A DNA stretch of 64,000 nucleotides from an uncultured SAR202 cluster bacterium (GCA_902620405.1 CACNIC010000002.1:68084-132083), one strand, 5' to 3'; numbered from the stretch's first letter, positions 10,042 through 55,550 are shown. Translations and numbers: made by a program. Notes: generated from the sequence alone by a model not told the origin.

Positions 10042-10045
10042 GTTT

Positions 10046-13598: not shown

Positions 13599-13601
13599 TT
13601 A

Positions 13602-37522: not shown

Positions 37523-37523
37523 T

Positions 37524-38036: not shown

Positions 38037-38048
38037 GATATACCTCCA

Positions 38049-41576: not shown

Positions 41577-43981
41577 TAATGATCACCTTTCTCATTAGAA
41601 TGTTCATCTCCAAAATGATCCCCAAAAGTATGCTCAAGATGTTCTTCATGAGCCCTATGGAATCCTTCTTCAGCGGTTTCTCCTGGAGCCAAAGTCAATA
41701 TTGGCACACCAGGTTCTACTTGAACTGCAGGGACATTTCCCTCAAATTTGGATATTTTTTTATTTTCTTTAGTTTTAATTATTTGAACAGTTGTTGAATT
41801 CCACATTATGTCTCCATTTTCATTTAGTTTACTAGAGTCAATTAGATCAACAACATTAGCTCCTCTTCCACTTGCATACCTTGTAAAATTATCTTTTCCT
41901 AATCCAATTGGCACTGCAACAGTGTTTGTTGGTACTGCGGGATGTACGTACACAGGAAGTTCTATGGAAGATATTTCAGACTTCACTTCAACAATATCTC
42001 CAGCTTTGATATCAAGCTTTTCAGCAGTTTTATTATTCATTTCTACCCATGTATCCCAAGTAATAGAAGTTAATGGATCAGGTGAACCTAGGGCCCAAGG
42101 ATTAGACAATGAATTGCCATCCCCAAATACATGAGATTTGAAAGGTATTAGGTAGAATTCATTTTTAGATCTTTTAATTGATGCGACAGAATTTATAACA
42201 TTTATTTCTGGATTTTTAGGTTCAACTTTGGGCTGATTAGTATTCCACCAGCCCCCCCTTGCCATTACGCCTCTAAAGAAATCATCTTTACTTGAAGCAA
42301 CAATTGATGAATTTTTATAGGAATCACTTTCATAGATATTATCTGAAAGTTCCATGCAAATATCCATAAACGATAATCCTGAAAGATTACCTTCTAAATC
42401 GTCAAGTAATACATTATTAAAACTTTTAGAATCATAAAGAACCTTTGAACCATCTCTAAGTAAAGGTTTAGTGGCGACTGGTTGACCAAATCCATAGGAT
42501 TGATACCCAGTTTTTGGTTCAGGTATATCAGAGCTCCACGATTGTAAACTTGTATTTGAAGGAAGAATTAAATCACATCTTTCTAATGTGTCATTAACAA
42601 CAATACCAAAACCAATTGAAAGTTTTGCTTTACCAATTGCATCAACTAATCTTTTTTTCCCTGGGATTTCATTAACTAGATCTACATTATTAATCATAAT
42701 GAGGTCTTGACCTCCTGATTCCCAAGTTTCAATTTCCTTTGACCAATCTTCATAAGAATCCCATGAAGAATCTGAAGGCATTTTTATTACTTCACCATTA
42801 ACTAATATGTGTTTAAGTTCATTCTCAGGATTTATTATTATCCCACCCTCCTTATTAACTGAATTTGTAATGTAGTTGAGGCCATATACGAGTGCATTTA
42901 TGCTTCTGGAATTAGAATAACCAGATACACATCCGCCAGATAAAAACATTATTTTTTTATTTTTATCAATTGAATAATTTATTTTTTCAATTAATTTTTC
43001 TATAGCGTGATAATCTATACCTGTTGCTTTTCCAACTGATTTAGGATCCAAACTAACATTAGAATTATTTAATTCATTAATTTCCTGTATGCCTGCAATC
43101 TTCTTAAAATATTCAACATCTTCATTTTTTATTTTTTCATTCTTCAACAATGAGTCAGCAATCAATAATGCAATTAACCCTTCTTTTCCAGGATCGCTAC
43201 ATAACCATTTATCCGCAGCAGCAGCAGTCATAGACATTCTAGGTTCGATTTGATACAAGTAACCTCTATTTTCTTTAATTCTAAATTTACCAAATTGGTA
43301 TTCGTATTCTACCGGCCCCCAAGTTCCAAGAAAGTCTAAACCAAATGAAATAATTAAATCAGAATTTTTGATATCAAAGTAAGGAAGGTCCTTAGTTCCA
43401 AAAACATCCTTAGTAGTTTCGTACATTGAATTATCCCTTAATGAAGCTAAACTCAGATGCTTCATATTTTTTATCGAAGCATATTTCTCAATCAATCCTC
43501 TATTTAAACCTCTTACAGGCTTTGTGATGATTGTTTTAGTTCCTTGTGAAGAAGTTGCGTTATTAATAATTGATTTAGCTTCCTTCCATGTAATTGGCCT
43601 ATGATTACCACTTGAAGTCTTTCTATAAAGTGGACCTGAAATTCTATCTGGGTGGTACATACTTTGTAATTCAGTTTCAGTTACAGTTTTATGCTTTCCT
43701 AAAGTATTTGGAAAATCTGGATTACCTTCGATTTTTTTTGCTCTACCCTGCATGATCCTTACGATTAGACTTTCTCCGTGACTAGATGTATCACTTAATG
43801 TTGCATACCAATCATCTTCGCCTTTTACGTAATCTTCCGGCATATCAACTGGAGCTTGGATAATAAATTCTTGCTCAGGTACTCCACAAGCTTCAAATAT
43901 AAAAGCACCCAATGCAGTTCCACCAACTAGGCCTAAAAATTTTCTTCTTGATAAATTATTCTTATTTTCTAATGATGACAT
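41576..43981 (-). CDS. actB: Alternative Complex III molybdopterin-oxidoreductase-like subunit ActB1 with TAT signal
   Basis: Twin-arginine signal LSRRKFLGLVGGTALGAF. 801 aa with complex-iron-sulfur-molybdoenzyme-like architecture. Stop overlaps the actB2 start. Confidence 0.8.
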   Translation of the reverse strand: MSSLENKNNLSRRKFLGLVGGTALGAFIFEACGVPEQEFIIQAPVDMPEDYVKGEDDWYATLSDTSSHGESLIVRIMQGRAKKIEGNPDFPNTLGKHKTVTETELQSMYHPDRISGPLYRKTSSGNHRPITWKEAKSIINNATSSQGTKTIITKPVRGLNRGLIEKYASIKNMKHLSLASLRDNSMYETTKDVFGTKDLPYFDIKNSDLIISFGLDFLGTWGPVEYEYQFGKFRIKENRGYLYQIEPRMSMTAAAADKWLCSDPGKEGLIALLIADSLLKNEKIKNEDVEYFKKIAGIQEINELNNSNVSLDPKSVGKATGIDYHAIEKLIEKINYSIDKNKKIMFLSGGCVSGYSNSRSINALVYGLNYITNSVNKEGGIIINPENELKHILVNGEVIKMPSDSSWDSYEDWSKEIETWESGGQDLIMINNVDLVNEIPGKKRLVDAIGKAKLSIGFGIVVNDTLERCDLILPSNTSLQSWSSDIPEPKTGYQSYGFGQPVATKPLLRDGSKVLYDSKSFNNVLLDDLEGNLSGLSFMDICMELSDNIYESDSYKNSSIVASSKDDFFRGVMARGGWWNTNQPKVEPKNPEINVINSVASIKRSKNEFYLIPFKSHVFGDGNSLSNPWALGSPDPLTSITWDTWVEMNNKTAEKLDIKAGDIVEVKSEISSIELPVYVHPAVPTNTVAVPIGLGKDNFTRYASGRGANVVDLIDSSKLNENGDIMWNSTTVQIIKTKENKKISKFEGNVPAVQVEPGVPILTLAPGETAEEGFHRAHEEHLEHTFGDHFGDEHSNEKGDH

Positions 43982-44781
43982 GTTTCACATCCTACTGAAG
44001 CTTCATTTGCTCTGTGACAAGCAACGCATTGACCCATTTTTAGAGGTTGAACTTGAGCAACTTGCTCCATACCAGCAACATTCCCATGACATGTCGAACA
44101 TACTTTTGATGCATTAACTGTCCCGTCAGGCAATACTTCAAAATCAACTGGTTTATTTTGTATTGAATCTGGATTTTCGGTTAAATACCATATATGAGGT
44201 GCGTGATTAAATCTTACATGATCGGGCATCCTATGAACTCTTTCCCAGTTAATCGGAGACTTTGTTTCTTCATATAAACCCTTTTGACGCAAATATGTTA
44301 ATTGTTCATTGTCGGAATCACCAATTACTTTATGGCAAGATATACACAATTCAACAGGAGGTACTCCAGACCAGGGCCTTTCAATTACTTGTTTATGGCA
44401 ATATGTACAGTCCATTCCAAGCCCCACCATTGGAGACCCATCATCATTAACTCTCATGTCTCCAGATGGAGAAACATATGGCTGACCTGTTTTTTCGTCA
44501 ATTAAAGGACCCACACCTGCGTGAATAGTATGTGGAAAATGCATAGGTTGTTCTGGGCTTTGGTCAAACCCTAATACTGGTAATGGGTTCCCAAACCATG
44601 CTGTCATAACAAAAGCTTGCAAAAAGCTTAATACAGCAAATATTCCAAGGCCACCTACTGCAAGAACTGGTGCTAATAATTTAAGCCATGTAGGAGTTGT
44701 TTTGTCCTTTTCCTTAATAATCTCTACAATTTCAGCAGCAATATAGAGTGGTGCGTATAGTATGTCTAACAATCTTTTCAA
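43969..44781 (-). CDS. actA: Alternative Complex III pentaheme cytochrome c subunit ActA
   Basis: Five CxxCH motifs (CTYCH, CISCH, CSTCH, CVACH, CETCH), an N-terminal TM anchor, and FPHTIHAG. Confidence 0.85.
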   Translation of the reverse strand: MKRLLDILYAPLYIAAEIVEIIKEKDKTTPTWLKLLAPVLAVGGLGIFAVLSFLQAFVMTAWFGNPLPVLGFDQSPEQPMHFPHTIHAGVGPLIDEKTGQPYVSPSGDMRVNDDGSPMVGLGMDCTYCHKQVIERPWSGVPPVELCISCHKVIGDSDNEQLTYLRQKGLYEETKSPINWERVHRMPDHVRFNHAPHIWYLTENPDSIQNKPVDFEVLPDGTVNASKVCSTCHGNVAGMEQVAQVQPLKMGQCVACHRANEASVGCETCHH

Positions 44782-45475: not shown

Positions 45476-46540
45476 ATGATTAGAGTAGGAATAATTGGTG
45501 CAGGAGGAAATACAATTTCTGCTCATTTGCCAAAATTAATTGAGCAGAGTGGAGTTGAAGTAGTATCAGTAGCTAACAGAACTGTCGCTTCGGGTGAAAA
45601 GGTAGCTAAAAAATTTAACATAAACAAAGTTTATGACGATTGGCAAAACATTATCACCGATGATGATGTAGATGCAGTTTGTATTGGAACATGGCCTTAT
45701 ATGCATTCTACAATTACTGTTGAGGCCTTGGAAGAGGGAAAACATGTATTAACTGAAGCTAGAATGGCAATGAATTCAGAAGAAGCAGAATTAATGCATA
45801 ATATTTCAAAAAGCTATCCAGATCTTGTAACTCAAATTGTACCTGCTCCTCATACTCTTCCTTACGATAACACTATTAAACAGTGGGTGACTGAAGAGAT
45901 GGGTGATTTAATTTTATTCGATGTCAGATCTTCAACTGGAGAATTCATAAATTACGAAAGAGAAATGCATTGGAGGGAAAATAGGGATCTTTCTGGAAAT
46001 AATATAATGCATATGGGCATATTTTATGAAGCAGGTATGCGTTGGCTTGGAACTGCTTCATCGGTTATGGCAACATCAAATGTTAACGTCAAAAAAAGAA
46101 TATCACCAGATACAGGTCAGATTTCAGAAATATCTATTCCAGATCATTTAGAAGCTATTGGAGAAATGAGTATTGGAGGAAATTTTCATATATCACACAG
46201 CACTGTTTTAGGTGGTGCTGAAAAGCTTGAAATATTTATTTATGGAACTAATTCAACTTTAAAAATTACTGAAGATATTAACTGTGCAACACCTCAATCC
46301 TACAATACATTGAAACTTAAACTGGAAACTTTAAATAAAGGTGCAAATAAATGGAAAATTTTAAAGCCAAAAAAAATTAATGTTGGTAAATGGCGAGTTG
46401 AAGAAGAATTTATTCAGGCAATAAAAGGTAAAGAAAAAATTACCCACACAACATTTTCTGATGGAGTGAAATACATGCAATTTACTGATGCGTTAAAGAT
46501 GAGTTCAGAATCTAATAAAAAAGTTTTTTTACCATTTTAA
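45476..46540 (+). CDS. Gfo/Idh/MocA family NAD(P)-dependent oxidoreductase
   Basis: MIRVGIIGAGGNTISAHLPKL Rossmann start, VDAVCIGTWPYMH, GKHVLTEARMA. Confidence 0.85.
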   Translation: MIRVGIIGAGGNTISAHLPKLIEQSGVEVVSVANRTVASGEKVAKKFNINKVYDDWQNIITDDDVDAVCIGTWPYMHSTITVEALEEGKHVLTEARMAMNSEEAELMHNISKSYPDLVTQIVPAPHTLPYDNTIKQWVTEEMGDLILFDVRSSTGEFINYEREMHWRENRDLSGNNIMHMGIFYEAGMRWLGTASSVMATSNVNVKKRISPDTGQISEISIPDHLEAIGEMSIGGNFHISHSTVLGGAEKLEIFIYGTNSTLKITEDINCATPQSYNTLKLKLETLNKGANKWKILKPKKINVGKWRVEEEFIQAIKGKEKITHTTFSDGVKYMQFTDALKMSSESNKKVFLPF

Positions 46541-46541
46541 A

Positions 46542-47303
46542 ATGAATGTGGTCGATTTAAATGCTGATGTCGGTGAGTCTTATGGATTGATGCATTCAGG
46601 TATGGATTCAGAAATTATCCCACATGTAACCTCAGTAAATATTGCAGCAGGATTCCATTCAGGAGATCCAGATACAATTAAAAAAACAGTTGATCTTGCT
46701 ATATCAACTGGAAAATCAATAGGAGCTCACCCTAGCTACCCTGACCTGCAAGGTTTTGGAAGACGAAAAATAGATATGGATTTTGAATCCATTGAGAATT
46801 TAACTAAATACCAAATAGGTGCTTTATTTGGTTTTGCAAAAGAAAGCCTCAATCATATTAAACCGCATGGTGCACTATACAATAATGCTGCTTCTGATAT
46901 GAATATCGCAAATTCAATTTACAATGCTGTTAATGGTTTTGATAGTAAATTAATTCATGTAACTTTGGCCAATTCTGAATGGAGTGAATACTTAAAATCA
47001 AAGAAAGTAAAAGTGGCTAATGAAGGTTTTGCTGACAGAGCATACGATGATAACGGTCACCTTGTTTCAAGATCCATTGAAGGATCTGTTCTACATAATG
47101 AATCTGAAATAATTGATAGAGTTATTGGAATGGCAAAAAATAAAGAAGTTAAGTCGATTACTGGAAAAATTATAAATTTAGATGTTGATACAATTTGCCT
47201 TCATGGTGATAATAAAGATTCAGTTATTTTGGCAAAAAAGTTAAAGAAAGAGTTAATTAATTTTGGCTGTGAAATAAAGAGTTTGCCCACTTTCATCAAA
47301 TAA
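46542..47303 (+). CDS. pxpA: LamB/YcsF family protein (5-oxoprolinase subunit A-like)
   Basis: DLNADVGES, NIAAGFHSGDP, GAHPSYPDLQGFGRR, KPHGALYN, GFADRAY, ICLHGDN. Confidence 0.85.
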   Translation: MNVVDLNADVGESYGLMHSGMDSEIIPHVTSVNIAAGFHSGDPDTIKKTVDLAISTGKSIGAHPSYPDLQGFGRRKIDMDFESIENLTKYQIGALFGFAKESLNHIKPHGALYNNAASDMNIANSIYNAVNGFDSKLIHVTLANSEWSEYLKSKKVKVANEGFADRAYDDNGHLVSRSIEGSVLHNESEIIDRVIGMAKNKEVKSITGKIINLDVDTICLHGDNKDSVILAKKLKKELINFGCEIKSLPTFIK

Positions 47304-47954
47304 ATGAATTATAAATTTTTTGATATATCTGACAGAACGATATCATTTAATTTTTCAGACAATATTGATCAAACCATAAATTCTAAAATAGTTGAAATAT
47401 CCTTTGAAATAGATAAAAAAAGAAGACATTTAGATATTGTGTCATGTTATCCAACTTACAATTCTTTAGTAATTGATTACGATCCAATAAATATTGAAAG
47501 GAATGTAATTATAAATAGAATTTCTGAATTAATAGATAATTTTGAATTTAAAAATTCAAATTCGGATGAATTATTAGAAATCGATGTAAATTACGGAGGG
47601 GGTTATGGTGAAGATTTGAAAAGTGTTTCTGAAATAACTAATCTTTCAGAAAAAGAAGTAATTAAAATCCATTCATCGGTAATTTATCATGTATATATGA
47701 TCGGATTCTCCCCTGGTTTTCCATATTTAGGAGGCCTTAATAAAAAACTAATTTGCCCGCGTCTTGATTCACCTAGGCAAGTTGTACCAGCAGGATCTGT
47801 TGGAATTGCAGATAAGCAGACAGGCATTTACCCTTTTGAGTCTTCTGGAGGATGGCGTTTAATTGGAAGAACAGATGAAAATCTTTTTGATAACAACTTG
47901 GTTTCACCAAGCATACTCAAGCCCGGAATGAAGTTGAAATTCAATGAAATATGA
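47304..47954 (+). CDS. pxpB: KipI/PxpB-type protein (CT_C_D, formerly allophanate hydrolase subunit 1)
   Basis: YHVYMIGFSPGFPYLGGL...PRLDSPRQVVPAGSVGIADKQTGIYPFESSGGWRLIGRT. Confidence 0.8.
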   Translation: MNYKFFDISDRTISFNFSDNIDQTINSKIVEISFEIDKKRRHLDIVSCYPTYNSLVIDYDPINIERNVIINRISELIDNFEFKNSNSDELLEIDVNYGGGYGEDLKSVSEITNLSEKEVIKIHSSVIYHVYMIGFSPGFPYLGGLNKKLICPRLDSPRQVVPAGSVGIADKQTGIYPFESSGGWRLIGRTDENLFDNNLVSPSILKPGMKLKFNEI

Positions 47955-49005
47955 AATTTTAAAGTTAACTAACCAGCCAATTTTTTCAACAATTCAGGAT
48001 GAAGGAAGGTTCGGATTTGAGCAATTTGGTGTTCCTAATTCAGGTTCTGGAGACAAGATATCTTTTAGATTAGGTAATTTGTTAATGAACAATAGCATCT
48101 CAGATGCATCTATAGAAATTTTATACGGAAATACTTCATTTGAATGTCTCAATGATACACAAATTTGCATTACTGGCTCTAACATGGACCCTAGGTTGAA
48201 TGGAATGCCAATAAAAATGTGGCAAACAGTAAATATATACAAAGGAGATAAAATTGAATTAGGCTCATCAAAAAATGGATTAAGATCATATATTTCTGTA
48301 AAAAAAGGTATTGAGATAAATAAAATTTTAGACTCTCGATCAACTCATTCTATATTCAATTTAGGTGGAAAAAAATTAAATATGGGAGATATTATTTCAA
48401 GTTCAAGTGTCCATAAAAAAAATAATTTAAAAAAAATAAATTTTTTAAGAAACATCCCAAATTTTAATGAAACAGAAAAACTATTACATGTCACTAAAGG
48501 CCCGGAATTCAACTTGCTTTCTGAAAAAAGTATAAAAATTATCGAGAACAATAAATTTAAACTTTCAAATAGAATGAGTAGAACTGGTGCTCAGATAGAG
48601 GGTGAAAAATTAGAATTGAAAAATGGTAAATCAGATATAATTTCTGATGGTGTTTCCGCTGGAACAATTCAGTTGCCAAAAGATGGGAATATGTATGTTT
48701 TACTCGAAGATTCACAAAGAATTGGTGGTTATGCAAGAATATTAAATTTTGACACTTTAAGCTTGTGGAAGATTGCGCAATTAAAGCCTGGAGATGAATT
48801 TAAATTAAAAATAATATCAATTGAAGAGGCTCATCAAAGATTAAAAGAAAATAATGATATTTTTTTTAAAAATAATGTTCATACAGAAGAAAAAATAAAT
48901 GAAAACATTTTTTATGTTGAAGGGGAGGAGATAAATGTTAAAATTTTTGGTGAAAACAATGAGCTTATTTATGTTAATAATAAGCCTTTAAAAATAGATT
49001 TTTAA
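47944..49005 (+). CDS. pxpC: KipA/PxpC-type protein (CT_A_B, formerly allophanate hydrolase subunit 2) with a C-terminal extension
   Basis: FSTIQDEGRFGFEQFGVPNSGSGDKISFRLGNLLMNN, ...RTGAQIEG..., GTIQLPKDGNMYVLLEDSQRIGGY. 353 aa. Confidence 0.8.
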   Translation: MKYEILKLTNQPIFSTIQDEGRFGFEQFGVPNSGSGDKISFRLGNLLMNNSISDASIEILYGNTSFECLNDTQICITGSNMDPRLNGMPIKMWQTVNIYKGDKIELGSSKNGLRSYISVKKGIEINKILDSRSTHSIFNLGGKKLNMGDIISSSSVHKKNNLKKINFLRNIPNFNETEKLLHVTKGPEFNLLSEKSIKIIENNKFKLSNRMSRTGAQIEGEKLELKNGKSDIISDGVSAGTIQLPKDGNMYVLLEDSQRIGGYARILNFDTLSLWKIAQLKPGDEFKLKIISIEEAHQRLKENNDIFFKNNVHTEEKINENIFYVEGEEINVKIFGENNELIYVNNKPLKIDF

Positions 49006-49038
49006 TAACAATAGATATAAAGTAGTTTTGAGAAAATT

Positions 49039-49353
49039 ATGGTTTTAGATGGATTATATATGTCCCTTATTGGGTTAGCAGTAGTTTTTATGGTGCTGAT
49101 TTTTCTTTTAATTACAATAAACTTATTAAATTACTTTGATAAAAATCCAAAAAAGAAAAATATTGATACAGATACTCTGATATCTTCAAAAAAATCTGAA
49201 AATAAAATGGAAAACGTTGTAGCTGCAATTGCTTTAAGTTTGGCAATGTCAGAGAACAATCCCAATAAAAATATTATTAAAAAAAATAATATGAGTTCTT
49301 CGAATTGGCTTTCAAACGGCCAGCAAAGATTATTCAGGTCAAGAGAGGTTTAA
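49039..49353 (+). CDS. oadG: OadG-like gamma subunit of a Na+-translocating decarboxylase
   Basis: N-terminal TM helix LYMSLIGLAVVFMVLIFLLITI, then ENVVAAIALSLAM. Small size, directly before the biotin carrier and the beta subunit. Confidence 0.65.
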   Translation: MVLDGLYMSLIGLAVVFMVLIFLLITINLLNYFDKNPKKKNIDTDTLISSKKSENKMENVVAAIALSLAMSENNPNKNIIKKNNMSSSNWLSNGQQRLFRSREV

Positions 49354-49775
49354 TGAAAAAATATGAATTAGTAATTGACGGAAAAAAATATGAAGTTGAA
49401 GTTGATTTAGGCGGTTTAAGCCCAAGCGTTTTGGTTAATGGAAAAAAAATTGATGTCGCTATAGGCAGTTCGGATGCTGCTGAAAAACCAAGAATTGAAA
49501 GAAAAAAGACTAAAAAATCTTCTGATGATAAAAATGATAACGTTGTAGAGACATCTGATGACCCAGGAGACTTAAAAGCTTTAATGCCAGGTAAGGTTAC
49601 TAAAGTACTTGTATCTAGTGGTCAAAAAGTGAAGGTAGGTGAACCTGTCTTACTAATGGAGTCTATGAAAATGGAACAAACTATAGTTGCTACTAAGGAT
49701 GGGAATATATCTGAAATTTTAGTTTCTGAAGGTGATACTGTTGAAGTAGGAAAAATAATGATTAAGATTAATTAA
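49353..49775 (+). CDS. biotin carboxyl carrier protein (biotinyl domain)
   Basis: MKKYELVIDGKKYEVEVD N-terminus, a linker, then PGKV...GEPVLLMESMKMEQTI, with the biotinyl-Lys codon at 49668-49670. ATG overlaps the oadG stop (TAATG) and AGAGAGG lies upstream. The track start at 49305 is inside oadG. Confidence 0.8.
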   Translation: MKKYELVIDGKKYEVEVDLGGLSPSVLVNGKKIDVAIGSSDAAEKPRIERKKTKKSSDDKNDNVVETSDDPGDLKALMPGKVTKVLVSSGQKVKVGEPVLLMESMKMEQTIVATKDGNISEILVSEGDTVEVGKIMIKIN

Positions 49776-49776
49776 A

Positions 49777-50973
49777 ATGGAAACAGATTACATTAATTTA
49801 ATTTTTGAAGGGTTTATTGATATTTATAATAACCCTAGGAATGCAATCATGTGGTTAATTGCTGGCTTTTTAATGTATTTTGGTATTGCTAAGAAAAAAG
49901 AACCGCTTTTATTAGTCCCTATATCTTTTGGTGTTCTTCTTGCAAATTTACCACTTGGAGAACTTGTTAAGCCATCATCAGGTGAAGGTGAACCTATGGG
50001 CTTTTTATTATTTTTTCAAGAAAACGGGCTCCATACTGACCTCTTGCCCCTTTTAGTTTTTCTTGGTCTAGGAGCTCTAACTGATTTCTCTCCAGTAATA
50101 TCTAATCCAAAAACATTGCTATTAGGTGCTGCTGCACAAGCAGGTGTATTTGTCGCTTTAATTGGAACTTTATTATTAAACCCTATATTTGATTTTGGGT
50201 TATTAGAAGCTTCGTCTGTTGGAATAATAGGGGGTGCTGATGGACCGACAACAATTTTTATTGCCTCAAGAATGAAAGAGCTTGGTAATTCACTTGGTGT
50301 TGGCGTGCAGGATATTGTAGGCGCAACAGCTGTAGCAGCATATTCATATATGGCTTTAGTACCGCTAATACAGCCTCCTATAATTAAATTTTTTACTACA
50401 AAAAAAGAAAGACAAATAGTTATGCCTCCACCCAAGCGAGAAGTTTCAAAAAGAGCTAAAATTTTATTTCCAATAATTTGCACTATTGTTATTAGTATTC
50501 TTGTTCCTAAAGCATCTCCGTTAGTTGGAATCTTAATGTTTGGAAACCTGATGAGAGAATGTGGTGTTGTTGAAAGATTAAGTAGTACCGCTCAAAATGA
50601 ATTAATGAATATTGTGGTAATAATTCTTGGATTGGCAGTTGGGTCAACAATGCCTGGTGAAGTATTTTTAAAATTTCAAACAATTGCAATCTTTGTTCTT
50701 GGTTTAGTTGCTTTTATTACAGCAACAATTGCTGGAATTCTTTTAGCAAAACTAATAAACCTAGTTAGTAAAGAAAAAATAAATCCTATGATAGGAGCTG
50801 CAGGTGTATCAGCAGTACCAATGGCAGCAAGAGTTGTACAAGAAATGGCGCAAAAGGAAAAGCCGGGCAATATGTTATTAATGCATGCAATGGGCCCAAA
50901 TATTGCTGGGGTAATTGGTACCGCAACAGTAGCAGGTGTTTTATTAAGTTTAGTTCCTGGGTTAATTGGGTAG
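49777..50973 (+). CDS. oadB: Na+-translocating decarboxylase beta subunit (OadB/GcdB/MmdB family)
   Basis: 398-aa polytopic protein: ...GIAKKKEPLLLVPISFGVLLANLP..., GGADGPTTIF, MGPNIAGVIGTA. Confidence 0.85.
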   Translation: METDYINLIFEGFIDIYNNPRNAIMWLIAGFLMYFGIAKKKEPLLLVPISFGVLLANLPLGELVKPSSGEGEPMGFLLFFQENGLHTDLLPLLVFLGLGALTDFSPVISNPKTLLLGAAAQAGVFVALIGTLLLNPIFDFGLLEASSVGIIGGADGPTTIFIASRMKELGNSLGVGVQDIVGATAVAAYSYMALVPLIQPPIIKFFTTKKERQIVMPPPKREVSKRAKILFPIICTIVISILVPKASPLVGILMFGNLMRECGVVERLSSTAQNELMNIVVIILGLAVGSTMPGEVFLKFQTIAIFVLGLVAFITATIAGILLAKLINLVSKEKINPMIGAAGVSAVPMAARVVQEMAQKEKPGNMLLMHAMGPNIAGVIGTATVAGVLLSLVPGLIG

Positions 50974-50977
50974 GCAA

Positions 50978-51850
50978 ATGAAAGGTGTATTTCCAATTTT
51001 ATCAACACCATTTGATTCAAAAGATAATATTATTTATGAAGATATTCATGCTGAAGTTGAATATGCTATTGAATCTGGAGTTAATGGAGTTGCAATTGCA
51101 CTTGCAAGTGAAGTTTATAAATTAACAGACCAGGAAAGAAATGAATTCCTGAAAAAAGTAGTTGAGTTTGCTGATAAGAGAATAAAAGTATGCATGAATA
51201 CAACGGCAGAATCTACAAAGCTTTGCATTGAATATTCAAAAAAAGCTGAAGAACTTGGTGCTGATGCAGTAATGATAGCCCCTCCATCTTTTGGTGGAGT
51301 TGATTCTTCAGAAATAAAAAAATATTTTATAAAAACTGCAGATAAAATTAATATTCCAATTTTCATGCAAGATGTATTTGATACGCCAATTTCCCCTGAA
51401 ATGGCCGTTGAATTATCGAAGAGCAATGAAAACTTGAAATATTTAAAAGTTGAAGTTGCGCCAACTTTGCCAAGATTTAATAAGTTAAAAGAAATTTCAA
51501 ATGATGGGTTTCCTATACCTTTTGGTGGAATGGGAGGAATATTTATGATTGAAGAAATGAGAAGAGGGTCAGTTGGGACAATGCCAGTCTGTGCATTCCC
51601 AAAGATATTTGTAAAAGCATACAATCTTTGGGTTGAGGGAAAACATCACAAAGCTGAAGAATACTTTCATAAGTATGTACCACTTATAAGAACATTGGGG
51701 CAAGGTTTAGGTATTTGGAATTGGCTTCCAAAATACATTCTTAAAAAGAAGGGTATCTTTTCAAATTCAATTGCAAGAGAACCATCTTTGAAACCAGATA
51801 ATGAACAAATTTATGAACTAGATAGGATGTTTGATAGGTTAGATTTGTGA
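50978..51850 (+). CDS. dihydrodipicolinate synthase/N-acetylneuraminate lyase (DapA) family protein, divergent
   Basis: MKGVFPILSTPF start, TIM-barrel-length protein, and a candidate Schiff-base Lys in NLKYLKVEV. Start taken at ATG 50978, 4 nt after the oadB stop. Confidence 0.7.
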   Translation: MKGVFPILSTPFDSKDNIIYEDIHAEVEYAIESGVNGVAIALASEVYKLTDQERNEFLKKVVEFADKRIKVCMNTTAESTKLCIEYSKKAEELGADAVMIAPPSFGGVDSSEIKKYFIKTADKINIPIFMQDVFDTPISPEMAVELSKSNENLKYLKVEVAPTLPRFNKLKEISNDGFPIPFGGMGGIFMIEEMRRGSVGTMPVCAFPKIFVKAYNLWVEGKHHKAEEYFHKYVPLIRTLGQGLGIWNWLPKYILKKKGIFSNSIAREPSLKPDNEQIYELDRMFDRLDL

Positions 51851-52638
51851 ATGATATAACAACATTAAATATTATTTTTTTAGTTTTTAGTTTACTTATT
51901 TCTGGATACTTTGCAGGGTTAGTAGGAATGCCACTTGGTCCAATACGTATATTTTTTATGCTTTTTTTTGGAGTAAATGCCCTGATTGTTTTTGGTACAA
52001 ATCTTGCTATTAGCTTTGTGATGATGATTCCAACAGTTTGGAATAATCTCAAACATAAAAGAATTGATTTTAAGACAGGAATTTTATTCATAATTTCTGG
52101 CGGGATAATTGGTCCATTTTTTGGAGGCATAATAAGTGAATCTTTTTCACAAGATATTTTACTTTTTATTGTTACAGTCTTAATTATTGTTTCTGGATTA
52201 TTAATAGTTCAAGCAGTACATTTTCCAAGTAAAAAAAACATTAAAGTTAATAAATCAAGAAAAGATCTTATAGCCTCTTTATTAAATGTAATTATAGGTG
52301 CTCTTGGTTCTTCGGTAGGTATGGTTTTAGGGGCTCTTAGATACCCTGTTATGATTAATTTTTTGAGGACAGAAGCAAAATCTGCAGGAGGGATAAACTC
52401 ATTTATAAACTTAATATTTGCTTTTTTTGGATTAATTGGGCATTTACTTGCATCTCAAGAATCAGGCAACAGTCATTTTAATTTTTATTTATTTTTACCA
52501 TTAGCTGTTGCAGGATTTATTGGTTCATATTTCGGTTCTAAACATGTAGCTTATTATTCAAACAAATTTATTCTAGTTATTCTTTATATTATTTTATTTA
52601 TAATGGGTACTTTAATGATACTAAGGGAGTTTATATAA
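51847..52638 (+). CDS. TauE/SafE family anion (sulfite/organosulfonate) permease
   Basis: ~8 TM helices in two repeats with Gly-rich helices (GLVGMPLGPIRI..., IGALGSSVGMVLGALRYP). GTG start overlaps the upstream stop (GTGA). Confidence 0.7.
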   Translation: MNDITTLNIIFLVFSLLISGYFAGLVGMPLGPIRIFFMLFFGVNALIVFGTNLAISFVMMIPTVWNNLKHKRIDFKTGILFIISGGIIGPFFGGIISESFSQDILLFIVTVLIIVSGLLIVQAVHFPSKKNIKVNKSRKDLIASLLNVIIGALGSSVGMVLGALRYPVMINFLRTEAKSAGGINSFINLIFAFFGLIGHLLASQESGNSHFNFYLFLPLAVAGFIGSYFGSKHVAYYSNKFILVILYIILFIMGTLMILREFI

Positions 52639-54321
52639 ATGTCTAAGTTAACCGGTAGTGACTTAATAATTAAATGTTTAAAGATGTATGATGTTGATAC
52701 CATTTTTGGCATTGCTGGCGATCACATTTTGCACTTACTTGATAAATTAATTGATCAAAATTTCAGAATGATAGATGGTCGTCATGAGGCTGCTTCTGTT
52801 CATATGGCTAACGCATATTCAAGAGTCTTAAGGAAACCAGGTGTAGTATTATCAACAACTCCAGGTCATGCAAATGCAGTTGCAGGATTAGCTAACGCAA
52901 TGCATTCTGAAGCTCCTGTAATAAATATTACTGGTTCAGCTGACTCTAGCAATATAGGCAGGGGTGCTATGCAAGAATTTGATCAAGTTGGTATTGCAAA
53001 ACCTGTTACAAAAGGTGCATGGGAAATACCATCTGTTGAAAGGATACCTGAATATATATCATTGGCATTTAGAACTGCAATGGAAGGCAAAAGAGGGCCA
53101 GTGCATTTAACAATTCCTCATGATTTACAAGAACAGACAGTTGATATTGAAGTTTTTCAAAGATACAAAAAAAGTGTTGTTGACGATATTAATAATTGGC
53201 TTACTTACCCAAATTTAAATCAAATTAATAAAAGTTTGGAGATGTTATCAAATGCAAAAAAACCGGTTATTATAGCTGGTCTTGGTGCTGGGGCTACTGT
53301 ATCAAGTAAAGATTTGGATCTATTTCTTAAAAATACTAAAATTCCATTCTTTGGAGTTGATTCTGGAAGGGCGTTGGTTCCTGATTCTCACGAATGTTCT
53401 TTGGGTATTGGTTATTTGCCATTAAATAAGTCTGCCCAAAGGGTTAGTGAATCCGATGTAGTTTTATTGTTGGGTGTAAAACTTGATTACCAGTTAGGTT
53501 TTGGAGGGTCACCTCCATTTAATAAGGACGCGAAAATAATTTGTGTTGATCCTGATATCGAACAACTAAATAGATCAAGAACCGTTTCATTAATTGTTAA
53601 TTCTGATGTAGGACCTTATGTTGAATTAATGAAACAAAGATCAGAAGGAATAAATTGGGATAATCATGAATGGCTAAAATCATTAAAAAATACTAAGAAA
53701 AATTATATAAGCGAAATGAACAAGTTGTCAGATGGCGAATTACCAATGCATCCAATGGATGTAAGCTTGTCCATTCAAGAACATTTAGATGACGATACCT
53801 TTGTTGTATTTGATGGAGGTGATTATTGTCATTTTTCGAGAGCAACAGTGCCAATTGAAAAATATTTAAGATCATTATACGTGAGTAGTTTTGGAATGAT
53901 TGGAGTGGGGCTTCCATATGCTATTGGTGCTAAAGCAGCACTTCCTGACAAAAAAGTAATATTAGTTGTTGGTGATGGTTCTTTAGGTTTTCATGTACCT
54001 GAAATTGATACTTCTGTAAGACACGATTTGCCAGTAACAGTGATAGTTGGCAATAATAGTTTATGGGGGATAGATTATTGGATTCAAAAGGGGCTGTATG
54101 ATAGGGATGTGTGGACAGAATTGGATCAAACAAATTATGAATTAGTTGCAAAAGGTTTTGGTGCACAAGGCATTCTTGTTGATAATCCAGAATTACTAAA
54201 ACAAGAATTAAAAAAATCATTAAATTCAAATAAAATGACAATATTAAATACCATTGTTAGAAAAATACCTAGTCCAGTAGCTGATGCAGCTGTGTCTAGA
54301 AAATTAGGAACACACGGATAA
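52639..54321 (+). CDS. thiamine diphosphate-dependent enzyme of the acetolactate synthase/2-hydroxyacyl-CoA lyase superfamily; substrate unknown
   Basis: Catalytic-Glu region DGRHEAASVHMANAY. ThDP motif VVGDGSLGFHVPE...VIVGNNSLWG. No small regulatory subunit follows. Confidence 0.85.
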   Translation: MSKLTGSDLIIKCLKMYDVDTIFGIAGDHILHLLDKLIDQNFRMIDGRHEAASVHMANAYSRVLRKPGVVLSTTPGHANAVAGLANAMHSEAPVINITGSADSSNIGRGAMQEFDQVGIAKPVTKGAWEIPSVERIPEYISLAFRTAMEGKRGPVHLTIPHDLQEQTVDIEVFQRYKKSVVDDINNWLTYPNLNQINKSLEMLSNAKKPVIIAGLGAGATVSSKDLDLFLKNTKIPFFGVDSGRALVPDSHECSLGIGYLPLNKSAQRVSESDVVLLLGVKLDYQLGFGGSPPFNKDAKIICVDPDIEQLNRSRTVSLIVNSDVGPYVELMKQRSEGINWDNHEWLKSLKNTKKNYISEMNKLSDGELPMHPMDVSLSIQEHLDDDTFVVFDGGDYCHFSRATVPIEKYLRSLYVSSFGMIGVGLPYAIGAKAALPDKKVILVVGDGSLGFHVPEIDTSVRHDLPVTVIVGNNSLWGIDYWIQKGLYDRDVWTELDQTNYELVAKGFGAQGILVDNPELLKQELKKSLNSNKMTILNTIVRKIPSPVADAAVSRKLGTHG

Positions 54322-54650
54322 TGCCAATTTACCATCAAGATAACTTAGAACCTAAAGAAATTCATCCTGGTGTAAATGTTAGAATAATGCATGGTGAAAA
54401 CATAATGATGATGTTGGTGGATATTGCTCCAGGAGCAACAGTCCCAACTCATACTCATGTAAACGAGCAAGCTGGAAGAGTACTTTCTGGCTCTTTTAAA
54501 TTAGTTATTGATGGACATGAACATATATTAAAAGAAGGCGATCATTATTTAATTCCTTCAAATGTACCTCACAGCGCCCATGGCAGTTCATCTAATTCAT
54601 TAGCTTTAGATATTTTTTCACCACCAAGAGAGGATTACAAAAAACTTTAA
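54321..54650 (+). CDS. cupin domain protein (metal-binding type)
   Basis: PGATVPTHTHVNEQAGRVLSG ... GDHYLIPSNVPHSA (cupin motifs 1 and 2). ATG overlaps the upstream stop. Confidence 0.75.
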   Translation: MPIYHQDNLEPKEIHPGVNVRIMHGENIMMMLVDIAPGATVPTHTHVNEQAGRVLSGSFKLVIDGHEHILKEGDHYLIPSNVPHSAHGSSSNSLALDIFSPPREDYKKL

Positions 54651-55082
54651 TTACTTTTTTGTTTCCCAGAAAATATCACCTATTTCTTCAAGAGCAGCTT
54701 GAAATTCCTTAGCTTTGCCTAAATCAACATTCACTTTAACAAAAGATCCTAATTTGCAAGCATTCCAAATTTTCTCATGAAGGTCAGGGTATTTTTCTAG
54801 ATGCTCAGGTTTGAAATAATCTGTCCAAAGAACTAAAACATCATCTTTTGCTTTTTTTGCATGAATTTCTTTAGCATACACATATCTCATCATTGAATTT
54901 GCAAGCGAAGGTGATGGACCACCTGAAACATCAAGTCCTTCCATTAATTCAGTCATCCTTACTACAGTTTTTGCTGCTTGTATTGCATCATTTGGATCAT
55001 ATATTCCGCACGGAATGTCACAATGAGCGTAAGCAGTTAATTCATTTTTTAATAAGTTTTTTATTCTATCGTTATTGAGCAT
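54651..55082 (-). CDS. sodN: nickel superoxide dismutase precursor
   Basis: Propeptide MLNNDRIKNLLKNELTAYA followed by the Ni-hook HCDIPCGIYDP. ~143 aa. Confidence 0.9.
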   Translation of the reverse strand: MLNNDRIKNLLKNELTAYAHCDIPCGIYDPNDAIQAAKTVVRMTELMEGLDVSGGPSPSLANSMMRYVYAKEIHAKKAKDDVLVLWTDYFKPEHLEKYPDLHEKIWNACKLGSFVKVNVDLGKAKEFQAALEEIGDIFWETKK

Positions 55083-55151
55083 AAAAATTTCTCCTGTTAA
55101 ATTATTAATAAGTTAATTATCTGATAAAAATCTTAAATGTAAAGAACATAA

Positions 55152-55550
55152 ATGTTAAAAAATCTATTAAATCAAAGAATAAATATTTTAGAAAAAAGTA
55201 TGGAACCCTCATTAATTCATGGTAGCTCAATAATAATGAGGAAAATTATATTGTTTTACAAGCCAAGGAGATTCGATGTTGTTCATTTTAAAAAAGATGG
55301 AACTAATCTTATTAAAAGGGTAGTGGGTTTGAATAACGAAAGAATTCAAATAAAAAATGGAGAATTAGTAATTAATGGAAATAAAATTTCAGAAAAATAT
55401 ATAAACGACAAATATATTTATGATTTTCCAGAAATGGTTATTGGTAAAGATGAATTATTTTTAATGGGAGATAATAGAAAAATATCTATAGATAGCAGAA
55501 AGTTTGGACCAGTTAAAATTAAAAATATCTTATCTTTTCAAAGACTTTAA
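55152..55550 (+). CDS. sodX: S26 signal-peptidase-like NiSOD maturation protease
   Basis: Ser motif SMEPSL, Lys motif LIKRVVGL, and LMGDNRKISIDSRKFGPV. No TM anchor. Divergent from sodN. Confidence 0.75.
   Translation: MLKNLLNQRINILEKSMEPSLIHGSSIIMRKIILFYKPRRFDVVHFKKDGTNLIKRVVGLNNERIQIKNGELVINGNKISEKYINDKYIYDFPEMVIGKDELFLMGDNRKISIDSRKFGPVKIKNILSFQRL

Follow-up and report, generated by a model that had tools for sequence, protein, structure and literature searches.

The six genes pxpA, pxpB, pxpC, oadG, BCCP and oadB, found in a 64,000-nt stretch of DNA from an uncultured SAR202 cluster bacterium (the window), point to a biotin enzyme, as yet undescribed, in which amide chemistry is tied to the sodium gradient; no description of such a system was found in the literature searched. 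We consider it probable that PxpABC, the biotin carrier (BCCP) and OadGB form one integrated system, and put forward more tentatively, with rather more doubt than confidence, an integrated membrane biotin complex whose direction is also specified, carboxybiotin being formed by sodium influx.

Organization and family assignment of the six genes

The earlier note on this DNA had reported six co-directional genes, with coordinates that proved exact to the base. The genes and their junctions were as reported, but the co-directional, closely packed run in fact comprises 11 genes (45476–54650), in the order GFO/IDH/MocA, six-gene block, DHDPS-family, TauE, TPP enzyme and cupin.

45476..46540, + strand: GFO/IDH/MocA-family NAD(P) oxidoreductase (Pfam GFO_IDH_MocA, 2.4e-21); pxpA lies 1 nt downstream
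46542..47303, + strand: PxpA (LamB/YcsF family), presumed lactam/amide hydrolase subunit
47304..47954, + strand: PxpB, KipI-type (CT_C_D), counterpart of subdomains C and D in the carboxyltransferase domain of urea carboxylase
47944..49005, + strand: PxpC, KipA-type (CT_A_B), 353 aa; 11-nt overlap with pxpB
48898..49002, + strand: C-terminal extension of PxpC, residues 319–353 (NENIFYVEGEEINVKIFGENNELIYVNNKPLKIDF), double beta-hairpin
49039..49353, + strand: OadG-like subunit (Pfam OAD_gamma)
49353..49775, + strand: biotin carboxyl carrier (BCCP), 140 aa; ATG internal to the 49305 ORF
49777..50973, + strand: OadB/MmdB/GcdB-type Na+-translocating carboxybiotin decarboxylase beta subunit (Pfam OAD_beta, TIGR01109)
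50966–51850, + strand: DHDPS-family aldolase-like protein (Pfam)
51847–52638, + strand: TauE/SafE-family permease (Pfam)
52639–54321, + strand: ALS/oxalyl-CoA-decarboxylase-like TPP enzyme (Pfam)
54321–54650, + strand: cupin (assigned from homologous loci)

A distinct biosynthetic ilvB is located elsewhere in the window (6853–8550). Within the block, pxpA directly abuts pxpB, pxpB and pxpC overlap by 11 nt, 33 nt separate pxpC from oadG, oadG overlaps BCCP by 1 nt, and 1 nt lies between BCCP and oadB; at the 1-nt overlap, the final A of the oadG stop codon (TAA, 49351–49353) is common to the BCCP start codon (ATG, 49353–49355). This base sharing had been noted before, as had the 140-aa length of the carrier, its SMKME motif and its Lys codon at 49668–49670, and all four hold.

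Profile HMM searches, proposed earlier as a check of the families, matched all six assignments in Pfam, both for the pxp genes (LamB_YcsF 2e-84, CT_C_D 1e-62, CT_A_B 3e-66) and for the oad genes (OAD_gamma 4e-10, Biotin_lipoyl 1.7e-17, OAD_beta 5.5e-143). PxpA and PxpB passed the curated NCBIfam cut-offs of NF003814 (299 bits, cut-off 226) and TIGR00370 (195 bits, cut-off 146), respectively, and PxpC fell below those of both an equivalog (169 vs 500) and a domain model (220 vs 230). OadB scored 458 bits against TIGR01109, and BCCP matched the NCBIfam MmdC-like and PRK05641 models. Relatives in the PDB were PH0987, KipI, YbgJ and MSMEG_0436 for PxpB, and 9YX5/3MML (MSMEG_0435), 5DUD (YbgK) and 3VA7 (urea carboxylase) for PxpC. 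Alignment of OadB with 6IVA revealed that all six residues reported to be essential in Salmonella OadB (E40, D203, R304, N311, S382, N412) are kept, and the subunit, with its sodium-site residues intact, appears functional.

Search for canonical partners in the window and related loci

Window ORFs of ≥300 aa included no Carboxyl_trans, PYC_OADA or biotin carboxylase (BC), and HMMs built from canonical proteins detected no canonical OadA-type, MmdA-type or BC protein among all window ORFs of ≥60 aa. The sole HMGL-like proteins of the window were of the LeuA/CimA type, with LeuA_dimer domains. Whereas 48 of the 68 canonical, non-Chloroflexota OadB loci had a carboxyltransferase nearby (flanking OadA-type in 34, MmdA-type in 14), no Chloroflexota locus had an OadA-type or MmdA-type carboxyltransferase or a biotin carboxylase within 10 kb. 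The earlier statement that the operon lacks OadA, MmdA/GcdA and biotin carboxylase holds for the whole 64-kb window and, within 10 kb, for the related Chloroflexota loci.

Conservation of the block among related loci

Contiguous pxpABC-oadG-BCCP-oadB was found in the window and in L001, L003, L006, L013, L014, L016, L019–L021, L023, L024, L029, L100–L102, L118 and L125. These loci belong to marine Dehalococcoidia-type lineages, with GC contents of 0.30–0.63 and identities ranging from 100 to 28% for PxpC and from 100 to 66% for OadB. The GFO gene was present in almost every related locus, with 1–3 genes inserted between it and pxpA in L014 and L100 and a downstream position in L104; this oxidoreductase is a conserved neighbour, separable from the six-gene block. 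Genes downstream of the block (50966..54650) usually travel with it: in most loci DHDPS and TauE lie 3′ of oadB, whereas L016 and L024 have lost or relocated the TPP enzyme and cupin. The TPP enzyme has moved in L024 and L102, and L016 lacks DHDPS as well as the TPP enzyme and cupin. Methylcitrate genes are inserted beside the block in L014 and L100. The pxp–oad adjacency, whose loss in relatives had been named beforehand as grounds for refutation, was thus kept over deep divergence and flank rearrangement.

Contiguity down to 28% PxpC identity, despite several flank rearrangements, argues against two separate modules placed side by side, namely an ATP-dependent PxpABC lactamase and an oad pump whose MmdA/PccB- or OadA/PycB-like partner is encoded elsewhere, which would share a pathway or ancestry alone. 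So does L016, in which pxpC overlaps oadG by 8 nt; this overlap, with no terminator found in the 33-nt pxpC–oadG gap of the window, weakens the caveat formerly attached to that gap. We judge the two-module explanation unlikely; several observations nevertheless speak for it. In a 2.75-Mb Dehalococcoidia chromosome (L022, OadB 73% identical), oadG-BCCP-oadB-DHDPS-TauE adjoins the ATP synthase operon and the 10-kb flanks of the triad lack pxpABC, and more distant Chloroflexota (L026–L028) contain orphan oadG-BCCP-oadB triads amid housekeeping genes; because these triads stand without pxpABC, a Chloroflexota triad can work with a partner encoded elsewhere, and a trans-encoded partner would be normal in this phylum. 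The methylcitrate-cycle genes would also be consistent with a propionyl-CoA-forming methylmalonyl-CoA decarboxylase, and the OadB-linked cases represent one evolutionary origin, since all come from a single lineage. Moreover, the thresholds passed by PxpA and PxpB are those for ordinary 5-oxoprolinase subunits, and 5-oxoprolinase is considered to consume ATP directly (PMC13274462).

PxpC tail, carrier anchor and OadG

PDB homologues cover PxpC only to residues ~304–308, and its tail lies outside every solved homologue. The AF2 model of PxpC (mean pLDDT 89.5) placed strands in the tail at residues 312–325, 328–335, 341–344 and 347–349, with pLDDT of 80–90. The tail, found on all PxpC proteins of the clade, aligned in register with the N-terminal anchor of BCCP and shares the motif and spacing of the anchors of decarboxylase biotin carriers. 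An HMM made from carrier anchors alone and searched against 14,273 ORFs detected, at E<0.01, 71 BCCP N-termini and 8 PxpC C-termini and nothing else; it detected the PxpC tails of L101, L102 and L023 (E 2e-4 to 0.04) but not the diverged tail of the window's own PxpC, which was recognised by position and pattern only. We propose that the tail is a docking module of the association-domain or carrier-anchor type, and such a motif on PxpC is a further point against two modules. It is not specific to OadB coupling, since single-hairpin tails occur in L009, L011 and L098, where no biotin gene is nearby.

BCCP consists of a double-hairpin anchor (residues 1–37, nt 49353–49463), a charged linker and a biotinyl domain, in which the biotinyl-Lys AAA codon lies within MESMKME. 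OadG has an N-terminal transmembrane helix, an amphipathic helix (VVAAIALSLAMSE) and a C-terminal SxWxxxGxxRLFxxR segment, the latter two conserved across loci. The OadG tail has been shown to bind the OadA association domain in a 1:2 ratio (PMC7274780).

Linkage of PxpBC to a biotin carrier in other loci

A sister variant (L103/L104) has the order pxpA-pxpB-pxpC(tail)-oadG-BCCP(anchor)-DHDPS, with oadG devoid of its TM helix and oadB absent; PxpC, the cytoplasmic part of OadG and BCCP therefore remain together without the pump. Since BCCP is kept with pxpABC after loss of oadB, a carrier belonging to a different enzyme, as two modules would require, is hard to reconcile with this variant. The PxpBC–BCCP linkage recurs independently, as BC operons and as fusion proteins, which also counts against that explanation. 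Gut-metagenome loci (L156, L158–160, L166) contain Nramp-pxpB-pxpC-BCCP-biotin carboxylase-pxpA operons. In L116 a gene for a CT_A_B+Biotin_lipoyl fusion protein adjoins a biotin carboxylase gene; the fusion protein is 96% identical to one that NCBI names from Faecalispora jeddahensis. Such fusion proteins form at least 12 clusters, and one of them (P0349) joins PxpC, double hairpin, linker and BCCP in one chain. The idea that a membrane biotin enzyme may use PxpB and PxpC as its carboxyltransferase module is thus supported by contiguity, absent partners, the tail motif and recurrent PxpBC–BCCP linkage.

Cryo-EM showed that MSMEG_0435/0436, the PxpC/PxpB homologues, hold the biotin of a BCCP domain, placed so that it could take part in a carboxylation reaction, and its authors interpreted this as biotin sequestration on the mycobacterial acyl-CoA carboxylase (PMC13012033). 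By analogy with that published interpretation, PxpBC could sequester the carrier biotin and throttle the sodium pump, with no catalysis of carboxyl transfer, and a pxpB-pxpC pair standing alone without pxpA does exist (L098). We regard such a regulatory role as very improbable, because PxpA is never missing from the block, the BC operons and fusion proteins resemble complete enzymes, and the pump would still need an unseen carboxyltransferase.

Proposed mechanism and direction

For the favoured integrated complex, we infer the physical assembly, chemistry, direction and substrate as follows. The six gene products would form one membrane-associated, biotin-dependent complex, in which PxpB and PxpC act as a urea-carboxylase-type carboxyltransferase that exchanges a carboxyl group between the biotin on the 140-aa carrier and an amide or lactam nitrogen of a small molecule, PxpA as the ring-opening hydrolase, and OadB, held by OadG, as the sole enzyme present able to form or cleave carboxybiotin. 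Through its cytoplasmic part, OadG would tether two beta-hairpin modules to the pump, namely the PxpC tail and the carrier's N-terminal anchor. Sodium influx through OadB would carboxylate biotin, PxpBC would move the carboxyl onto the nitrogen of the lactam, PxpA would hydrolyse the activated N-carboxy-lactam, and the product carbamate would spontaneously lose CO2, so that the sodium gradient pays for the uphill ring opening. The genes nearby (DHDPS-type, TPP enzyme and oxidoreductase) suggest that the substrate is a modified lactam and not plain 5-oxoproline.

The influx direction is slightly favoured over the pump direction. In BC-linked operons PxpBC can only consume carboxybiotin; therefore, if the chemistry is the same everywhere, OadB would be the carboxybiotin source. 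As a rough estimate, entry of 2 Na+ with exit of 1 H+ in seawater provides ~34 kJ/mol and biotin carboxylation at 2 mM bicarbonate costs ~35 kJ/mol; carboxylation would therefore lie close to equilibrium, and exergonic steps downstream could draw it forward.

The same complex might instead be a sodium-exporting decarboxylase, the first of the two options in the earlier note and a somewhat unlikely reading to which all of the evidence for integration applies equally, as do the intact sodium-site residues of OadB. Here PxpA would open a cyclic ureide- or carbamate-type ring to an N-carboxylated product, PxpBC would pass the carboxyl of that product to biotin, and OadB would decarboxylate the carboxybiotin and export Na+, conserving energy otherwise lost to spontaneous decarboxylation. 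However, it is not evident where a stable N-carboxylated substrate would come from in nature, and PxpA would have to act ahead of the carboxyltransferase, whereas in BC-linked operons it acts after it. The orthologous L103/L104 variant, moreover, lacks OadB but retains PxpABC, the TM-less OadG and BCCP within the same pathway setting, and captured carboxybiotin would have no outlet there. Reversed 5-oxoprolinase (Glu to 5-oxoproline, ~-8 kJ/mol) would yield too little for sodium export, the 5-oxoprolinase equilibrium constant being 0.035 (PMC13274462).

Comparison with known systems

To our knowledge, every carboxyltransferase family so far described occurs both in a BC-coupled carboxylase form and in an OadB-coupled decarboxylase form, a pattern that a urea-carboxylase-type carboxyltransferase with OadB would complete. 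The two forms run in opposite directions, as in oxaloacetate decarboxylase versus pyruvate carboxylase and methylmalonyl-CoA decarboxylase versus propionyl-CoA carboxylase, which argues for the pump direction here. In line with this, all characterised OadB-family complexes work in vivo as decarboxylase pumps (PMC7274780, PMC7145394). In the influx direction, which we slightly favour, the difference from known systems would lie in the energy source: ATP pays for ring opening in ordinary 5-oxoprolinases, urea amidolyase and BC-bearing pxp operons, whereas in the proposed complex the sodium gradient would do so.

Composition of the six-gene block

Re-reading of the sequence reproduced exactly the positions that the earlier note had assigned to six ORFs at 46542–50973, and the Pfam profile search it had proposed recovered all six of the families that it had named:

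46542–47303, + strand: PxpA (LamB_YcsF, 2e-84)
47304–47954, + strand: PxpB, KipI-type (CT_C_D, 1e-62)
47944–49005, + strand: PxpC, KipA-type (CT_A_B, 3e-66)
49039–49353, + strand: OadG-like subunit (OAD_gamma, 4e-10)
from 49353, + strand: BCCP, the 140-aa biotin carrier subunit (Biotin_lipoyl, 1.7e-17; SMKME motif; N-terminal double hairpin)
49777–50973, + strand: OadB (OAD_beta, 5.5e-143)

The junctions are likewise as described: pxpA and pxpB abut (0 nt), pxpB and pxpC overlap by 11 nt, 33 nt separate pxpC from oadG, oadG and BCCP overlap by 1 nt, and 1 nt separates BCCP from oadB. The last base of the oadG stop codon (TAA, 49351–49353) is the first of the BCCP ATG, and the biotinyl-lysine codon within MESMKME occupies 49668–49670. 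The six genes are co-directional, as the note had it, but they form part of a longer run (45476–54650), in which a GFO/IDH/MocA oxidoreductase gene (GFO) ends 1 nt 5' of pxpA and oadB is followed by genes for a DHDPS-family protein, a TauE permease, an ALS-like TPP enzyme and a cupin. A promoter and terminator scan returned counts at the level of shuffled sequence, with no terminator-like site in the 33-nt pxpC–oadG gap of the window; read in the frame of a would-be PxpC–OadG fusion, this gap contains five stop codons.

Comparison with the curated NCBIfam cut-offs for 5-oxoprolinase placed PxpA (299 vs 226) and PxpB (195 vs 146) above and PxpC below them (169 vs 500 for the equivalog, 220 vs 230 for the domain). 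OadB keeps E40, D203, R304, N311, S382 and N412 (Salmonella numbering), including the sodium-site and essential residues. The OadG-like subunit has a hydrophobic N-terminus, and both its VVAAIALSLAMSE helix and its SxWxxxGxxRLFxxR end are conserved. Exact database look-ups of the window PxpC and of another compared protein, P0082, gave no match.

Genomic surroundings

GC content of the window is ~30%, and its nearest database records are marine Chloroflexota/Dehalococcoidia MAGs. Elsewhere it carries ilv/leu genes, gyrA, an alternative complex III cluster, Ni-SOD and isoprenoid genes, among them the following:

10046–11608, + strand: LeuA/CimA-type paralogue 1 (HMGL-like, HCS_D2, LeuA_dimer)
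15134–16705, - strand: LeuA/CimA-type paralogue 2 (HMGL-like, HCS_D2, LeuA_dimer)
34499–36451: CcmF, listed with the alternative complex III-type cluster
38049–39422, - strand: NrfD, alternative complex III-type cluster
41576–43981, - strand: molybdopterin-family subunit, 801 aa, alternative complex III-type cluster
43969–44781, - strand: multihaem cytochrome, alternative complex III-type cluster
54651–55082, - strand: nickel superoxide dismutase (Sod_Ni)
55152–55550: S26-family peptidase, adjoining Sod_Ni

The alternative complex III-type cluster (36875–44781, - strand) is divergent from the operon and syntenic in relatives. Sod_Ni and the S26-family peptidase are presumably a SodN/SodX pair, and the two genes (54651–55550) are kept downstream of the operon in all relatives. 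The LeuA/CimA-type paralogues flank the ilv/leu cluster. Two ALS-like TPP enzymes are encoded in the window, one in the operon (52639–54321) and ilvB (6853–8550); the operon enzyme (560 aa) was rejected as Xsc or biosynthetic ALS, since none of its scores comes near an equivalog cut-off and ilvB is encoded separately.

Search for a canonical carboxyltransferase or biotin carboxylase

The earlier note had reported the operon to be devoid of a canonical carboxyltransferase or biotin carboxylase, and profile searches extended this to the whole 64-kb window, where no Carboxyl_trans, PYC_OADA or biotin carboxylase was found. OadA- and MmdA-type HMMs were additionally built from clustered large ORFs beside OadB in 68 canonical, non-Chloroflexota loci; these ORFs comprised 26 of OadA type (HMGL-like and PYC_OADA, without the carrier domain) and 13 of Carboxyl_trans type. 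The OadA-type HMM matched 34 of the 68 canonical loci and the Carboxyl_trans HMM 14, and neither matched any Chloroflexota locus (window and 10-kb flanks). Within the window they weakly touched two LeuA/CimA paralogues and nothing else; these two HMGL-like proteins were rejected as OadA, as both carry LeuA_dimer and HCS_D2 and lie in the ilv/leu cluster. A biotin carboxylase HMM matched no ORF of the window or of the Chloroflexota loci, and did match in the compared loci L116, L156, L158–160, L166 and L177.

Conservation of the block

Loss of the pxp–oad adjacency in relatives had been named as evidence that would count against a joint function. The block proved to be contiguous down to 28% PxpC identity, over a GC range of 0.30–0.63. 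With PxpC as query, all 353-aa homologues (91–46% identity) have the same arrangement; with OadB, which is far more conserved than PxpC, the order pxpA-pxpB-pxpC-oadG-BCCP-oadB recurred in contexts at 79, 73 and 70% identity. Scanning GTDB with each species represented by one genome gave 12 Chloroflexota OadB loci, seven with the full block; the other five were one contig beginning at oadB, the locus L022 and three distant orphan oadG-BCCP-oadB triads (OadB 58–61% identical). Further block loci were found by PxpC alignment in a metagenome scan of the 80 best of the first 600 pattern matches, a broad, non-random sample of PxpC loci (L101, L102, L109, L118 and L125), and by look-up (L100). In one locus (L016), pxpC and the oadG-like gene overlap by 8 nt.

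The flanks were more variable. RadC and other genes lie between GFO and pxpA in L014 and L100; L016 is without DHDPS, TPP and cupin genes; and the TPP gene is inverted and upstream in L024 and L102. In the high-GC members L014 (13277–16764) and L100 (15337–18801), prpB-like, citrate synthase and prpD genes are inserted directly after TauE, and in several loci E1 alpha/beta and a GBBH-like_N (DUF971) gene stand upstream of GFO. The methylcitrate-cycle insertions and the E1/GBBH-like_N neighbours hint at a pathway ending in propionyl-CoA or 2-oxobutyrate.

The closest PxpC relatives outside the clade (Clostridia, 33–34% identity) belong to plain pxpA-(Nramp)-pxpB-pxpC clusters without oad genes, and none of the 68 canonical loci has Pxp genes near OadB; thus the OadB-linked form looks like a single invention in marine Chloroflexota. 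In L022 (1600–9528; complete Dehalococcoidia chromosome OY282385.1), the order oadG-BCCP-oadB-DHDPS-TauE is divergent from an F-type ATP synthase operon and the 10 kb around the triad hold no pxpABC; the orphan triads L026–L028 sit among housekeeping genes (Sir2, radical SAM protein, YchF, holA, archease–RtcB). These loci indicate that the triad in this phylum can work with a partner encoded elsewhere. They are the main argument for two independent modules lying side by side, a reading to which the single origin and a search scope of window plus locus flanks also lend themselves, and which we regard as improbable. Because OadB is the only enzyme in the locus that makes or breaks carboxybiotin, the six products were taken as one system, and integration of PxpBC, PxpA, the carrier and OadGB is probable.

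The C-terminal tail of PxpC

Solved PxpC homologues, namely MSMEG_0435 (3MML/9YX5), E. coli YbgK (5DUD) and urea carboxylase (3VA7), stop at approximately residue 305. Beyond this point, the clade's PxpC carries ~35–45 further residues whose pattern is kept across the clade: two beta-hairpins of the form [YF]-x-h-x-h-x-G-x-x-[YF]-x-V-x-h ... h-x-V-[ND]-G-x-x-h-x-h, which align in register with the N-terminus of the neighbouring BCCP (MKKYELVIDGKKYEVEVD...VLVNGKKIDVAI). An AlphaFold2 model of PxpC (50-sequence alignment; mean pLDDT 89.5) predicted tail strands at 312–325, 328–335, 341–344 and 347–349 with pLDDT 80–90. Carriers beside OadB in canonical loci bear the same motif as an N-terminal anchor, the Clostridia version having one hairpin and the Bacteroidales version two.

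As a control, an HMM made from 14 carrier anchors only was run against 14,273 ORFs of ≥60 aa from the loci and the window. At E<0.01 it recovered 71 BCCP ORFs, eight PxpC C-termini and no other ORF, and its alignment spanned the whole double hairpin in L101, L102 and L023 (E 2e-4, 0.012 and 0.036). The AT-rich, diverged tail of the window's own PxpC was missed by this HMM, so its assignment follows from position, pattern and homology to the clade tails. A hairpin-motif profile gave chance-level matches to the PDB; the link between the hairpins and the OadA association domain is therefore drawn from architecture and literature. In the oxaloacetate decarboxylase (OAD), the OadA association domain, situated between carboxyltransferase and carrier, is bound by the C-terminal helix of OadG, with two association domains to each gamma tail (PMC7274780), and the carrier GcdC is anchored by ~30 N-terminal residues (PMC7145394). 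By analogy, we infer that the cytoplasmic region of OadG may tether one module of PxpC and one of BCCP.

Single-hairpin tails also occur in many Bacillota PxpC without a biotin gene in view. A spirochaete-labelled pxpB-pxpC pair without pxpA (L098, 8563–10411; P0068) has a PxpC that ends in an OadG-like 'IIAAIAAAME' helix and one hairpin, with no biotin genes within 10 kb.

PxpBC with a biotin carrier in other lineages

Three further PxpC configurations were present among the matches listed in the metagenome scan (best 80 of the first 600 pattern matches). In a sister variant (L103 and L104; GC 0.63), which has DHDPS, GFO, RadC, TPP and cupin neighbours in common with the OadB-linked system, the order is pxpA, pxpB, pxpC with the tail, an OadG-like ORF, and a BCCP with the double-hairpin anchor; no oadB or oadB remnant was found in either locus. 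The OadG-like ORF (L104, 11201–11566; L103, ~1250–1540) has lost its transmembrane helix and keeps two AAIA-type helices and the SQWLAAGRARQM end (SxWxxxGRxRQM), indicating that loss of the pump leaves the cytoplasmic part of OadG together with PxpC and the carrier.

Human gut metagenome loci L156, L158–160 and L166 (GC 0.38) encode Nramp-pxpB-pxpC-BCCP-biotin carboxylase-pxpA. The L158 operon (9263–13599) ends in pxpA-UbiD and amounts to a split urea-carboxylase-like set plus LamB/YcsF. In L116, pxpA-Nramp-pxpB-pxpC is followed by a fusion, a biotin carboxylase and a D-glutamate cyclase fragment; the fusion (10991–12358, + strand) is a 455-aa CT_A_B–Biotin_lipoyl protein, 96% identical to P0241 (NCBI name: Faecalispora jeddahensis). 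In L177, pxpBCA adjoins a Carboxyl_trans–biotin carboxylase–BCCP set.

A search for such fusion proteins revealed at least 12 clusters of PxpC–BCCP fusions of 441–494 aa (P0241–P0245, P0247, P0252, P0276, P0281, P0283, P0341 and P0349), most with an AccB-type carrier. In P0349 a single chain runs from PxpC through a double hairpin, recognised by eye, and a linker to a BCCP of decarboxylase type, which is, as predicted from its sequence, the OadA architecture on a PxpC-type carboxyltransferase. The fusion pattern suggests that some 'PxpABC' systems are biotin-dependent. By cryo-EM, MSMEG_0435/0436, which are homologous to PxpC/PxpB, dock on the mycobacterial acyl-CoA carboxylase and keep the biotin of a BCCP domain 'positioned to participate in a carboxylation reaction' (PMC13012033).

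Proposed mechanism and direction

OadB should handle both carboxybiotin and sodium, since every residue reported to be essential in Salmonella OadB is kept. In an integrated system, PxpBC would exchange a carboxyl group between carrier biotin and an amide nitrogen, PxpA would supply the hydrolysis step, and OadGB would tie the biotin cycle to sodium.

For the direction, we tentatively propose that the integrated complex consumes carboxybiotin. A little more tentative is the full scheme, an ATP-free amidolyase in which OadB carboxylates in vivo, Na+ influx yields carboxybiotin, PxpBC N-carboxylates a lactam and PxpA hydrolyses the product. This direction is favoured because PxpBC can only consume carboxybiotin in the biotin carboxylase operons, because PxpA would act after PxpBC as allophanate hydrolase does after urea carboxylase, and because L103/L104 could keep the same chemistry via a biotin carboxylase in trans. 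Opening of 5-oxoproline is also uphill and needs an energy input (Keq 0.035; PMC13274462). The conserved DHDPS-type aldolase, TPP enzyme and oxidoreductase lead us to speculate that the substrate is a substituted lactam. As a rough estimate, entry of 2 Na+ with exit of 1 H+ in seawater provides ~34 kJ/mol, and carboxylation of biotin at 2 mM bicarbonate costs ~35 kJ/mol; the two would thus nearly balance, and loss of CO2 from the product carbamate could draw the step forward.

The same complex might instead run as a Na+ pump, with PxpA opening a ring to an N-carboxy product, which we consider rather unlikely. Every characterised OadB complex is a decarboxylase, and in other carboxyltransferase families the biotin carboxylase-coupled carboxylase and the OadB-coupled decarboxylase run opposite ways. 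Ring opening to an N-carboxy product is what 5-oxoprolinase performs on 2-oxothiazolidine-4-carboxylate. The pump direction needs a ring whose opening by PxpA leaves such a product, and L103/L104 working as a pump would have no outlet for carboxybiotin. Reversal of 5-oxoprolinase to drive the pump was ruled out by energetics.

Implications

To our knowledge, only three carboxyltransferase types feed Na+-pumping decarboxylases (OadA, MmdA/GcdA and the malonate system). A urea-carboxylase-type carboxyltransferase of KipI/KipA fold, if the integrated reading is true, would be a fourth, and amide/lactam nitrogen chemistry would join keto acids and CoA esters in the reach of this sodium coupling. 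Should the complex run in reverse, biotin carboxylation powered by a sodium gradient instead of ATP would have its first physiological example, bearing on how ocean Chloroflexota (SAR202-like), abundant and energy-limited, balance their energy; confirmation of the sodium-driven direction would make the finding categorically new. A corollary would be that a sizeable subset of annotated PxpABC '5-oxoprolinases', the members equipped with a carrier, biotin carboxylase or fusion of their own, are split urea-amidolyase analogues using carboxylation, not phosphorylation. The PxpBC–BCCP fusions and biotin carboxylase operons offer a testable hypothesis for the mechanism of a very widespread enzyme family, and also bear on mycobacterial Rv0263c/Rv0264c.

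Comparison with known systems

The literature searched contained no description of a PxpABC–OadGB–BCCP system, nothing relevant on SAR202/Dehalococcoidia with oxaloacetate decarboxylase or oxoprolinase or on KipI/KipA with decarboxylase subunits, and no functional study of pxp operons or fusions with biotin carboxylase.

With the OAD Na+ pump (OadA-OadB-OadG; Klebsiella, Vibrio, Salmonella; 6IVA/6IWW), the block shares an OadB-type beta subunit with all essential residues, a gamma subunit with a TM helix and a cytoplasmic amphipathic helix, and biotin on a swinging carrier; PxpC plus its beta-hairpin module parallels the domain order in OadA (carboxyltransferase, association domain, carrier). 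It differs in having no OadA TIM-barrel (HMGL-like plus PYC_OADA) in the searched window and loci, a two-subunit carboxyltransferase candidate of cyclophilin-like KipI/KipA fold, a separate carrier subunit, and a LamB/YcsF hydrolase within the block. The methylmalonyl-CoA and glutaconyl-CoA decarboxylases (MmdABCDE and GcdABCD) share the separate carrier (N-terminal anchor, flexible linker, biotinyl domain) and the gene order gamma/delta-like, carrier, beta, and the double-hairpin anchor is common to the block BCCP and Bacteroidales decarboxylase carriers. Unlike these systems, no Chloroflexota locus has a crotonase-fold Carboxyl_trans alpha subunit within 10 kb, and the operon is without CoA-ester enzymes.

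PxpC aligns to carboxyltransferase subdomains A/B of urea carboxylase/amidolyase (K. lactis; 3VA7, 5I8I), covering 3VA7 residues 488–800 (E 4e-23; NCBIfam urea_carbox, 1.5e-40). PxpB is linked to subdomains C/D by its Pfam CT_C_D match, the direct match to urea carboxylase being weak (E 7e-4, ~44 residues). Subdomains A–D (CT_A_B and CT_C_D) are present here too, split over two polypeptides. Shared as well are the carrier and the proposed logic, amide-N carboxylation followed by hydrolysis by a second enzyme, although the hydrolase here is LamB/YcsF and not allophanate hydrolase, and in the absence of a biotin carboxylase domain OadB is the sole carboxybiotin-handling enzyme present. The proposed general base of the K. 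lactis carboxyltransferase is Lys1605 (PMC5770610). Labels like 'biotin-dependent carboxyltransferase family protein' in the databases stem from homology to urea carboxylase only.

PxpABC 5-oxoprolinase (B. subtilis, C. glutamicum, P. putida PP_4575-7 and PP_2920-2) comprises the same three families in the same order, and its lactamase paralogues act on other lactams (bioRxiv 10.1101/2021.12.09.472016). Characterised PxpABC is without a dedicated biotin carrier and is taken to use ATP directly, whereas the block has its own carrier and a PxpC under the equivalog cut-off with a 35–45-aa tail. Carrier, tail and a different set of neighbours speak for a modified form of this enzyme.

The best PDB sequence match to the window PxpC was MSMEG_0435 (E 7e-33). 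MSMEG_0435/0436 are likewise a stand-alone KipA/KipI-type pair, there with BCCP docked and biotin in the putative active site, but they bind a soluble carboxylase in trans, without PxpA or OadB. Their authors read the pair as regulatory, and no activity was found (PMC13012033); for the block, a purely regulatory, biotin-sequestering role is very improbable, as PxpA is always retained. The Bacillota pxp–biotin carboxylase operons and fusions (L158, L116, P0241, P0349) resemble the block in giving PxpABC its own carrier; their carboxybiotin, in contrast, comes from an ATP-grasp biotin carboxylase and not from OadB, and the systems are soluble.
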